From contig CAZFAO010000006.1 in assembly GCA_964516875.1 (NCBI GenBank), forward strand, positions 17,049 through 81,048: a stretch of 64,000 bases of DNA, written 5' to 3'. The DNA is from an uncultured Burkholderiales bacterium (GTDB lineage Bacteria > Actinomycetota > Acidimicrobiia > IMCC26256 > JAGPDB01). Every line of letters begins with the position of its first letter. Positions within the stretch are counted from its first letter, which is position 1. Shown here piece after piece: positions 52,401 through 55,400 of the stretch. The position numbers were made by a program.

Positions 52401-55400
52401 GACGTCGTAGTGGTCGCTCAAGGCCATATCGAGGCCATCGGTGCCATTATCGGCCACAGAAACGGCAAATCCCTCGCTTCTGAGGCGCACGGAGAGTGCG
52501 TTTGCGATATCGTCTTCATCCTCGACGATCAGGATCTGCTTCTTCACCCCACCAGTCTACGTTTGTCCAGGTCGCGACCACCTGGTCGAAATGTGGAGGT
52601 TTTGTGCAGAATGGGCAGGAATAGGCTGACGCTATGCTTCGTTGTATTCGTAACATTCCCCTAATTAGGCATTAACGAGAGGCTATTTAACGACGAATAA
52701 GTCCTTAGTACACAATATAAATAAGGATACCTATGGCCTGGAGTGACTCTTCGAGAGACTCATCAGATTCAGCGCACTCATTGAGTAGTGGCGTCTTCAG
52801 TGCTGCCGGTGTACAGGTCAAAGCCATGGCCGGTTCTTCTTTTACCACCGATGTCATCCGTGTTGAACGTTTGGGTGTGGAGAGTGCTGTAAAAATTCTG
52901 ACTCCGAACGCAACAAAAGATCCCGATCTTGTTTCACGTTTTCTAAAAAATGCTCGCTACAACCAAAGTCTTAATGAATTTACCGGGATGAGAATTACTG
53001 AGATTGTCGAAACGGGTCCGCGTCCATACTACGTGATGGAAAAAGTTGCCGAATCATCGTTGTTGGAAATAATTCGACAGCATGCTCCTCTTGATCCTCG
53101 ATGGTTAGCAACATTGCTGTTGCCCATTGCGCGCATGCTCGACACGATTCATCAACGAAGTGTGTTGCACGCAAATATTAAGCCGAGCAATCTTTTGGTG
53201 GTTGTGGAAAATAACCAAGAAAAATTTCTTCTTGTTGATTACATGGAACCGACTCTCGCTGCAACATCTGCAACATTGACGGGCGCTGGAGTGTACGCTG
53301 CGCCCGAATTTCGTGCAGGTACGCCCGTGTCGAATCGATCCGACATTTACTCGTTATCCGCTGTGATGTACGAGGCGTTGAGTGGAATCGTGCCGGGCAG
53401 TTCTTATCGCGGGGCCGATGGGGTTTTCCATGTTTGGCGTGCTGGTGACAGGCCACGCGAGTTATGCCAAGTGAACCCAGAAATCAATCGCACAGTATCG
53501 GAAATGATTATGCATGGGGTTTCGCCCGATGCAATTTCGCGTCCAGCGAGTGCAACGGCTTTGGTGGAAGAGACTTTGCGCACGTTAGAAGTTCCACGCA
53601 CGCGCGTGGAAGTGAAAAAGGAAGTCGAGCCCGATCATCAACCTGTACCCATGTTGCTTATTGCAGCAGGTGTATTTTTGACCATCCTTCTTTTGTTCGG
53701 AGGATACAAACTGTTAACCGGCGCAGTTGGCGGATCAGATACTCCGCAGGCAACGTCGACGAGTGCTCAAACAACAACGACAGAGAACACAGCGGTGACA
53801 AACTTGACGGCAAACGAACAAAAAATTATTGCGTTGCTGCCATCGGTTGATGGAAATCAAACATGTCCACCAAGTGCTTCGACGAGAAATAATCCACAGT
53901 GGGCATTGAGTATTGCAGAGTTGGAATGTACGTCTGATGGCGTGACAGATTTGCGATACGGTCTGTTTTCTAATTCAACAGATCAAAAAGCAAACTACCA
54001 AGGCCAAGCGTTAACAATGAGCGATGAAGTTCAAGCTGCTGGCGGGAAGATCGTTGGCAATACGGGAGGAAAGATTCCTTGCTCGACGAATCAAAATGAA
54101 AGTGGTGGCTGGGGAGACAACGAACAGACCGGAAAAATCGGCGGTCAATACACCTGTGTATCACTTCCACACCCACGAATTGTTTGGACCGACACAAGGT
54201 CGGGGCTGATTGGCGATGCTGAACTTCGCAACGGGAATATTGCTGACCTCATTCAATGGTGGTCATCAAAGGGAGGGCCGATCGGCTAATGGAACTTACA
54301 CTTACTGTCCAGCCACCTGCAGCGCCCGCCGTTGATGTTGATATGACTGTCGATGCGTCGCGACCTATGCGCGATGTTGTCGATGCACTCGTTCGTGCAA
54401 CAGGTGTACCTCCCACGTTGAGTAGCGATATGAGTTTGTATGTTCCGCTTCGCGATGCTTGGTTGAATAATGAGATGACTGTTTCTCAAGCGCGATTGCG
54501 TATGGGAGAAGTTGTTGTTCTCGGTCGAAACATGAACACGTCGTCTGTGATTATTGGTGACGTAGTTGAAAAGACGCGCACCTCCAAGAACAAAAAATCA
54601 ACGAGTCCAGCCTCTGCGTATGAGCTGTGTGTCGTGTCGGGTCCAGAGAATGGAACACGAATTTCGCTCACGCCGAAAAGTTTGGTCATTGTTGATCGAC
54701 GTGGCAGTGTCCGCGTGAGTGACGCAAAATCAATGTATAAACGACGTCCAGCTGAACCTGAAGAAATGACGACAAATGAAAGTAACCATCATTTTAAATT
54801 TGAGGGTATCACCGAGCTCGACGCAGCAGCATGTCTTCTTGAAGTCGATCGAACAATATTTTTCTCACCTATCACAGGCGAAGTGAGCGTAGAAGTTCGT
54901 CGAGCAAAAGAACGAACGGAACTCGATGAGCACGCAATGATTTCGTGTGGGGGAGTGTTCCTCTTTATTCGACGAAAAGTTGTCGACGAGCCTCTGTCGG
55001 TTTCTGAACGTGGGATCGTTGCGATCAACCGACCACCTCGCAACATGCAACCACCGATGGAACGAATCATTGGTATCGAAGCGCCTCCGCGTGATGCGCA
55101 AAAGTCTCGTATTTCACCTGTCATGATTGCAGTGCCAGCAATATTTGGTTGTGTGATGGCAATCGCGATGAGCAATGTGATGTTCCTTGGTTTTGCTTTT
55201 ATGTCGCCCGTGATGATGCTGGGTCAAGCGTGGGATTCTCGACGCACGGGAAAGAAAGATTTCAGGTCGGGCAAAGCAAAATACGTTGCCGATATCGATG
55301 CAGCAGTTGCACAACTTCGCATTGGTCGTCGTGAAGAATTAGCAATTCGACGAATTGTATTTCCCGACGCAACTGATTGCATGTCACGTGTGCTCGATGG

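Follow-up and report, generated by a model that had tools for sequence, protein, structure and literature searches.

A 64,000-nucleotide stretch of contig CAZFAO010000006.1 (positions 17,049 to 81,048 of the forward strand; hereafter the window), deposited as an uncultured Burkholderiales bacterium and placed by GTDB in the Acidimicrobiia, encodes a 518-residue bitopic pseudokinase at 52733..54289 on the forward strand, stop codon included. The gene adjoins and overlaps that of an EssC-type ATPase of a type VII secretion system (T7SS), and the protein is probably a catalytically impaired kinase fold that serves as a non-catalytic partner of this ATPase. The overlap with the ATPase start suggests an EssB-like secretion adaptor that arose separately. 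Judged from its sequences, the locus appears to be a previously undescribed T7SS variant in which the kinase-fold adaptor possibly still binds nucleotide.

The assignment of the pseudokinase to the Hanks-type (eukaryotic-like) kinase superfamily is confirmed by a profile score above cut-off and by a bilobal fold. Pfam PF00069 (Pkinase) matches the protein with 68 bits against a cut-off of 31.7 (E 1e-18) and matches every one of 21 family members; a family profile searched against PDB sequences finds M. tuberculosis PknB at E 1e-28. The start at 52733 is backed by a TAAGGA Shine-Dalgarno sequence and by the N-terminal residues, both of which are conserved in an alignment of nine related loci. 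A homologue search returned 23 orthologues with 44–100% identity, all from metagenome-assembled genomes (MAGs) of Acidimicrobiia, beyond which the scores drop sharply, to no more than 77 bits for generic Ser/Thr kinases. The family is thus small and restricted to one clade.

The catalytic apparatus is altered in most of its familiar elements. In place of the GxGxxG consensus the Gly-rich loop reads G34-S-S-F with a three-residue insertion, the αC glutamate is replaced by asparagine (RFLKN73A), and the HRD motif has become H146 A147 N148 (codons cac gca aat, 53168..53176, forward strand). DFG is changed to D169-Y-M, and its glycine and about five residues that follow are gone. The β3 lysine (AVK54IL) is retained and the APE motif (YAAPE192F) is intact. 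When the 21 family members were compared with 68 generic bacterial Ser/Thr kinases, the next-best database matches, the αC position was Asn in 21/21 of the family versus Glu in 63/68 of the controls; the HRD aspartate was Asn in 21/21 versus Asp in 67/68; and the HRD arginine was Ala or Gly in 21/21 versus Arg in 64/68. Invariant across the 21 members are K54 of β3, K150 and N153 of the catalytic loop, D169 of the DFG position, and APE. These counts indicate that the substitutions at catalytic positions are not chance. Of the features of a catalytically competent Hanks kinase, then, the protein keeps the β3 Lys, the catalytic-loop Asn, and the DFG Asp and lacks the HRD Asp, the Gly-rich loop, and the αC Glu. 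An earlier note on this DNA had listed the motifs of the Gly-rich loop, K54, the αC Asn, HAN, DYM, YAAPEF, and the TAATG junction, and each was found in its place. Its statement that the catalytic positions are altered extends to the whole family, in which the catalytic base, the αC Glu, and the Gly-rich loop are lost, and its view that the protein is still recognizable by sequence as a Hanks kinase is borne out by the PF00069 matches.

This is a genuine gene that purifying selection maintains, and it is not decaying. Between two related loci, L006 and L009, the kinase-like domain has a nonsynonymous divergence (dN) of 0.000 at a synonymous divergence (dS) of 0.257; comparison of the window with L006 gives a dN of 0.145 for the kinase-like domain and of 0.589 for the ectodomain. 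By dN/dS and by per-segment conservation, constraint within the protein is strongest in the kinase-like domain, where the catalytic loop, the activation loop, the P+1/APE region, αF, and αC are conserved best.

An AlphaFold2 (AF2) model of the whole protein has a mean predicted local distance difference test score (pLDDT) of 74, with values of about 80–92 in the kinase and outside domains. It consists of a bilobal kinase fold at residues 27–288 (52811..53596), a single transmembrane helix at residues 307–329, and a folded C-terminal domain. The helix lies within a segment at residues ~305–329 (53645..53719) in which VPML..G.F is invariant, and the extracytoplasmic domain spans residues ~356–518 (53798..54286). 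The top solved structure matched by the model is M. tuberculosis PknI (E 4e-15, TM-score on target 0.74–0.75), which crystallizes in a pseudokinase-like inactive state; PknA, PknE, and PknB follow, and EssB/YukC is absent from the top 50 matches. PknI (PDB 5M06, 5XKA) resembles the pseudokinase in being a membrane-anchored actinobacterial Hanks kinase as well as its best structural match, but the identity is only ~21% and its gene is not linked to an EssC gene.

Modelled by itself (pLDDT 88, predicted template-modelling score 0.86), the ectodomain forms an α/β domain of six strands and four helices with four invariant cysteines, and it has received no fold assignment. Pfam searches and PDB profile-sequence searches with the ectodomain gave no match, and Foldseek found nothing significant in the PDB (best E 0.03). 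A PknH_C-type sensor (PF14032, PDB 4ESQ) was considered and rejected, as 4esq was reached only at E 0.07 with a TM-score of 0.27. When 1.84 billion representative proteins were scanned exhaustively with HMMER, only 13 relatives emerged: the family itself, stand-alone transmembrane or lipoprotein paralogues of 191–221 residues, and a few weak matches, some of them membrane-anchored high-GC proteins that are probably actinobacterial.

The gene junction suggests a link with secretion. The stop codon of the pseudokinase and the start codon of the ATPase share 1 nt in a TAATG sequence (54287..54291, forward strand) that is present in 7/7 direct pseudokinase/EssC junctions and is held down to 45% identity, and the pseudokinase adjoins EssC in all loci that extend far enough to reveal its neighbor. 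The branch at 45% identity (L001–L003) keeps the gene pair and the overlap and lacks the substrate cassette found beside EssC elsewhere. The gene order in every sufficiently long locus is a divergent response regulator and histidine kinase, the pseudokinase, in some cases a paralogue of its ectodomain, and EssC. The junction, the linkage to an FtsK/SpoIIIE T7SS ATPase, and the topology of a pseudokinase with one transmembrane helix and an outside domain had all been proposed earlier, and all three stood up to comparison and modelling.

The paralogue is an extra gene inserted between pseudokinase and EssC in loci L004 and L088. It encodes a stand-alone ectodomain with the same four cysteines and the PNESGEWG, IVWT, and WW..AGP motifs, together with its own transmembrane segment or lipobox; an overlapping junction of the ATGA type joins it to the pseudokinase stop, and toward EssC it keeps TAATG. 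Its existence implies that the outside domain is a separable module of the system. The genes lie at L004:11527-12192 and L088:11530-12123 and encode 197–221 residues; the window has no equivalent.

The downstream gene (54289..58881, forward strand) encodes an EssC/EccC-type ATPase of 1530 residues. PF01580 matches it in three stretches, so that it displays the three FtsK_SpoIIIE domains by which the membrane EssC/EccC ATPase of a T7SS is recognized. It scores 364 bits on TIGR03925 (EccCb), above the cut-off of 346.55, and 578 bits on TIGR03928 (EssC), below the cut-off of 778. Conservation of the N-terminus MELTLTVQPP and of the TAATG junction places its start at 54289; an upstream ATG at 54256 was rejected, as it is not conserved and falls inside the conserved C-terminus of the pseudokinase.

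At the ATPase's N-terminus, residues 1–80 (54289..54528) tentatively form a YukD-like ubiquitin-fold domain: Pfam YukD matches the window protein at E 0.018–0.058, below the Pfam cut-off, and for 10/23 N-termini of this EssC group no other Pfam family scores better (best E 1.9e-4); other ubiquitin-fold families also appear among the group's sub-threshold matches. Residues ~110–235 (54616..54993) correspond to a degenerate FHA domain. The family N-termini align over their full length with those of relatives at 28–37% identity (hhalign probability 99.9%, E 7e-31), whose EssC proteins carry Pfam FHA domains (PF00498/PF16697); family members match neither profile. The relatives' IGR...SrrH...NG is replaced in the family by VD(r/y), with no S-x-x-H and no NG, and the residues lost are the canonical phosphothreonine-binding Arg, Ser, and Asn. 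A PDB sequence profile search with the EssC N-terminus gave no match. From the YukD-like hits and the FHA alignment the ATPase reads as a YukD-like module, a degenerate FHA domain, a transmembrane region, and three ATPase domains.

This architecture invites comparison with EssB/YukC of the Bacillota, bitopic proteins whose cytoplasmic domain cannot bind ATP and needs no phosphorylation to bind the FHA domains of EssC/YukB (PMC9600267). Cryo-EM has shown that YukD stabilizes the YukB FHA domains for YukC binding, with the αC helix of YukC at the interface (PMC12637312). The two systems share a cytoplasmic kinase fold followed by one transmembrane helix and an outside domain, an EssC partner whose N-terminal FHA domain has lost its phosphothreonine-binding residues, and a ubiquitin-fold module in the same unit, here apparently fused to EssC. 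They differ in other respects. The pseudokinase scores as a normal Pkinase, with PknB and PknI as its nearest relatives, unlike EssB/YukC (PDB 4ANO, 6Z0F). EssB has lost all kinase motifs, reading LDMR, Ytfvlapd, and TRG in their place (PMC12599244), and with them ATP binding (PMC9600267, PMC12599244), whereas the pseudokinase keeps the β3 Lys, the DFG Asp, the catalytic-loop Asn, and APE. The extracellular segment of EssB is helical (PMC3694306), whereas the ectodomain described here is α/β with four cysteines; and the host belongs to the Acidimicrobiia, not the Bacillota. The match to EssB/YukC proposed in the earlier note therefore held for topology and as an analogy but not for family membership: the YukC/EssB profile PF10140 matched 0/21 members even at E≤10, EssB/YukC was absent from the 50 best structure matches, and the ectodomain folds differ. 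Read most economically, as a non-catalytic adaptor that docks on EssC, the pseudokinase would be a functional analogue of EssB; it does not belong to the EssB/YukC family.

A mechanism may be proposed on these grounds. The residues at its active site predict that the kinase fold is unable to perform normal phosphotransfer. By analogy with YukC, YukB, and YukD (PMC12637312), it would dock on the FHA/ubiquitin-like N-terminus of EssC without any need for phosphorylation, and docking may nucleate or stabilize the membrane core of a minimal T7SS machine. The overlapping genes would keep the two proteins co-produced, and the adjacent two-component system probably controls their expression. The outside domain, apparently of a disulfide-stabilized type, could sense an envelope cue or form an extracytoplasmic part of the apparatus. 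Since K54, K150, N153, and D169 are invariant, nucleotide binding in the cleft has probably survived, with the nucleotide in a structural or regulatory role.

Several observations weigh against a non-catalytic partner of EssC. A pure scaffold would not usually retain these four residues along with a very conserved activation loop, and EssB has lost them all. No T7SS core component beyond those described was found within the window, and its small open reading frames of 92, 94, and 96 residues gave no WXG100 match with Pfam, NCBIfam, or hidden Markov models built from sister loci. Moreover, all the contexts derive from one vertically inherited syntenic block, so that the adjacency of pseudokinase and EssC counts as a single evolutionary observation, drawn from one clade of uncultured organisms. 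Since an apparently intact set of nucleotide-binding residues and a conserved Ser/Thr-rich activation loop are retained, two other explanations, a switch phosphorylated in trans and an active enzyme, have been kept under consideration.

In the first of these, which is unlikely but fares best among the alternatives, the pseudokinase is a phospho-switch receptor whose activation loop (T178, S179, T181, T183) is phosphorylated in trans by a bona fide kinase, gating the assembly or activity of the T7SS. A candidate kinase of the PknB type, intact and with PASTA domains, is encoded at 19567-21525 in the same window. The activation-loop segment, residues 173–187 (PTLAATSATLTGAGV; 53249..53293, forward strand), is modelled as disordered (pLDDT <50 over residues 173–184), yet 6/15 of its positions are invariant. 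S179, found in 21/21 members, occupies the column of the main activation-loop phospho-acceptor Thr, which is Thr in 35/68 control kinases. However, FHA domains favor phosphothreonine, whereas residue 179 is Ser; the sole FHA domain at the locus has lost the Arg, Ser, and Asn that would bind it; and within 10 kb neither the window nor the related loci encode a separate FHA protein or a phosphatase. Combinations of kinases and FHA proteins do occur in related T7SS loci (PMC11217815). The model for such a switch is M. tuberculosis MviN (MurJ), phosphorylated by PknB to recruit FhaA, and the MviN pseudokinase with FhaA (ActPs3) is likewise an actinobacterial, membrane-tethered, non-catalytic kinase fold with an FHA partner. 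It differs in that none of its catalytic motifs survive and ATP is no longer bound, and its action depends on a juxtamembrane Thr that PknB phosphorylates (PMC12599244); its fusion to a flippase, with no link to secretion, is a further difference.

The conserved cleft might instead belong to an atypical active enzyme, with HER3-like residual phosphotransfer despite Asn at HRD, or with some other ATP-dependent reaction that regulates EssC or its substrates. The β3 Lys, the catalytic-loop Lys and Asn, and the DFG Asp are all invariant, the catalytic loop is among the best-conserved segments, and some bacterial "pseudokinases" have gained other activities (PMC12599244). We nevertheless regard an active enzyme as improbable, somewhat more so than the switch: replacement of the catalytic base Asp by Asn is the classical kinase-dead change, and it is accompanied by loss of the αC Glu, the Gly-rich loop, the HRD Arg, and the DFG Gly, and by the deletion after DFG. 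Least probable of all is an envelope sensor unrelated to secretion, a signalling pseudokinase paired with the divergent two-component system and next to EssC through inherited synteny; for although the response regulator and histidine kinase are syntenic in every locus, the shared intergenic region contains a conserved direct repeat, and the outside domain looks like a ligand-binding module that also exists alone, the 1-nt overlap with EssC persists to 45% identity, the pseudokinase lies on the EssC strand and not on that of the two-component system, the gene inserted in L004 and L088 is an ectodomain paralogue that overlaps both neighbors, and in an outgroup T7SS locus a kinase occupies the corresponding position.

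Membrane kinases are already known in other branches of the T7SS. Garrett et al. 2024 described T7SSc to T7SSj, with membrane kinases TscD, TsdD, and TseD in T7SSc, T7SSd, and T7SSe, and speculated on phospho-regulation; TscD has an EssB-like topology with a conserved active site (PMC11217815). The three kinases resemble the pseudokinase in having an N-terminal cytoplasmic Hanks kinase domain, one transmembrane helix, and a C-terminal outside region, and in lying in clusters whose EssC homologues bear FHA domains; T7SSd is found in Actinomycetota (PMC11217815). In those systems, however, the active sites and the phosphothreonine consensus of the EssC FHA domain are conserved, and in the window both are degenerate. 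The window cluster further differs in lacking a PPM phosphatase, a vWA protein, TsdH, and a TsdI-like immunoglobulin-domain protein. T7SSd is defined by an active TsdD and a TsdC with the FHA consensus (PMC11217815), both of which are degenerate here, and by TsdH and a large immunoglobulin-domain TsdI with no ubiquitin-like module; no immunoglobulin-domain protein was found in the window cluster or in the family loci, and a tentative YukD-like domain is fused to EssC. The Acidimicrobiia go unmentioned in Garrett et al. 2024 (PMC11217815), and no paper in the literature library searched pairs type VII secretion with this class. A 2025 review lists the bacterial pseudokinase families and notes that membrane-associated ones may act in secretion (PMC12599244); by its descriptions none of those families has the motif pattern found here.

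The origin of the pseudokinase can be approached through the closest outgroup EssC, P0104 (36% identity), whose locus, L093, is laid out as in the window. Its gene order is an FHA protein, a 684-residue transmembrane Hanks kinase, an exported protein, and an EssC with an FHA domain. The kinase is fully canonical, with GQGGMG, VALK, the αC Glu, HRD, DFG, and APE, and L093 has the look of the same system in a complete, phospho-signalling form. The presence of an intact kinase in the same slot implies that, for this EssC group, having a kinase-fold partner is a trait of ancestral type. In another locus, L094, a kinase and an FHA protein lie 3–4 kb from EssC. As to details of L093, the genes directly upstream of EssC (L093:6172-9996) encode the FHA protein as a stand-alone protein, the transmembrane kinase with an N-terminal zinc-ribbon-like CxxC...CxxC motif, and the exported protein, which has 329 residues and a repeated domain.

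A closer affinity of the pseudokinase to the T7SS-linked active kinases of L093, L094, and L059 than to generic kinases was sought and rejected, since with the family profile they rank only 28, 69, and 70 of 72. A T7SS-linked kinase aligns with the family at 65 bits and 28% identity. Because the T7SS-linked kinases are no nearer than generic ones, similarity argues neither for nor against common descent. Farther afield, phmmer searches around 76 distant EssC relatives from named Actinomycetes (29–35% identity) found no kinase-like open reading frame within 10 kb except in Pseudoscardovia. Twelve conserved neighbor families compared with a kinase profile by hhalign gave probabilities below 1%, with no sign of a hidden kinase fold. 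The distant loci carry genes for WXG100 proteins, an ADP-ribosyltransferase toxin, and Tad pili. The idea, raised earlier, that the pseudokinase is an intermediate between signalling kinases and the T7SS scaffold is thus plausible but unproven. In its favor, an outgroup with an intact kinase and a canonical FHA domain contrasts with a dead kinase and a degenerate FHA domain in the family; against it, this is one contrast only, and the T7SS-linked kinases are no closer than generic ones.

EssB/YukC is essential for T7SSb, and it has diverged too far for its origin to be read from sequence. The acidimicrobial system displays an in-between state, in which the partner is still clearly a Hanks kinase yet lacks the catalytic base, the αC Glu, and the Gly-rich loop, and in the same lineage the FHA domain of EssC has lost its phosphothreonine pocket, while the nearest outgroup retains both partners in canonical form. 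A testable hypothesis follows, that kinase–FHA signalling pairs of the T7SS can become fixed as constitutive scaffolds. More broadly, and with less confidence than attaches to the partnership with EssC, we would tentatively see in this locus an undescribed T7SS subtype limited to an Acidimicrobiia clade, with a core made of the pseudokinase and a single ubiquitin-fold–FHA–EssC chain. Such a subtype might record the conversion of a T7SS Hanks kinase to a scaffold with a matching loss of phosphothreonine binding by FHA, either as an independent replay or as a surviving early stage of the EssB/YukC route, and its outside domain might be a new disulfide-stabilized fold that is also supplied as a separate lipoprotein. 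It would offer structural work a compact two-protein core, with ubiquitin-like module, FHA domain, and ATPase in one chain, and would add a secretion-linked family to the short list of bacterial pseudokinases.

Candidate substrates or accessory proteins of the system are encoded in a convergent cassette of five open reading frames beside EssC (58882..62112, reverse strand). They specify proteins of 261 residues (58882-59667), conserved in L006 and L009; 478 residues (59714-61150), with no family match; 96 residues (61160-61450); and 92 and 94 residues (61523-61801 and 61828-62112), a pair conserved in L004, L009, L088, and L089. Sister loci L004, L006, L088, and L089 carry a 97-residue protein that matches WXG100 (E 4.8e-6). 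The convergent reading frames of L093 encode 209, 457 (a weak T7SS_signal match), 94, 98 (WXG100), and 396 residues. The 478-residue protein of the window combines a long, helical N-terminal part with a hydrophobic stretch and a low-complexity tract rich in Ala, Gly, and Thr; in position and size it parallels the 457-residue protein of L093, and it may be a T7SS substrate or a membrane-active effector. EsaA and EssA were not found near the window EssC. The window stops at 64000, within a parent contig of 83 kb.

On the other side of the pseudokinase lies the divergent two-component system, an OmpR-type response regulator (51822-52547, reverse strand) and a HAMP histidine kinase (50644-51822, reverse strand). 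The intergenic region that separates it from the pseudokinase (52548..52732) contains a direct repeat with 11-bp spacing beside the response-regulator start, at ~52591-52610, which reads ATGTGGAGgttTTGTGCAG in the window against a consensus of ATGTGCAGAttATGTGCAGA and is conserved in 8/9 related loci. The repeat is a candidate binding site for an OmpR-family response regulator, through which the neighboring two-component system could control the pseudokinase–EssC operon.

Synteny in the related loci extends to the flanking riboflavin, rRNA-methyltransferase, and menaquinone genes. The RibB reading frame (50009-50791, reverse strand) overlaps that of the histidine kinase by about 150 nt; since RibB has 221–228 residues in related loci, the true start is probably internal, near 50680, with an overlap of about 30 nt. 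The reading frame at 49317-49994 (reverse strand) encodes a homologue of NpmA/KamB-type 16S rRNA (adenine1408-N1) methyltransferases (PF24675, 172 bits against a cut-off of 60), an enzyme family that confers aminoglycoside resistance and that occurs here in an environmental, uncultured actinobacterium; the gene is syntenic in all related Acidimicrobiia loci. Elsewhere in the window, three large GGDEF-EAL proteins with CHASE and/or PAS sensor domains are encoded at 251-2635 (forward strand), 7381-10482 (reverse strand), and 34478-37273 (reverse strand), an unusually dense set of genes for cyclic di-GMP signalling. Finally, two MAGs labelled uncultured Burkholderiales bacterium, represented by L009 (CAYMMG010000007.1) and L010 (CAZLQP010000015.1), carry the Acidimicrobiia-type locus; their EssC proteins are 67–82% identical to that of the window and the flanks are fully syntenic, so the taxonomic labels are probably wrong.

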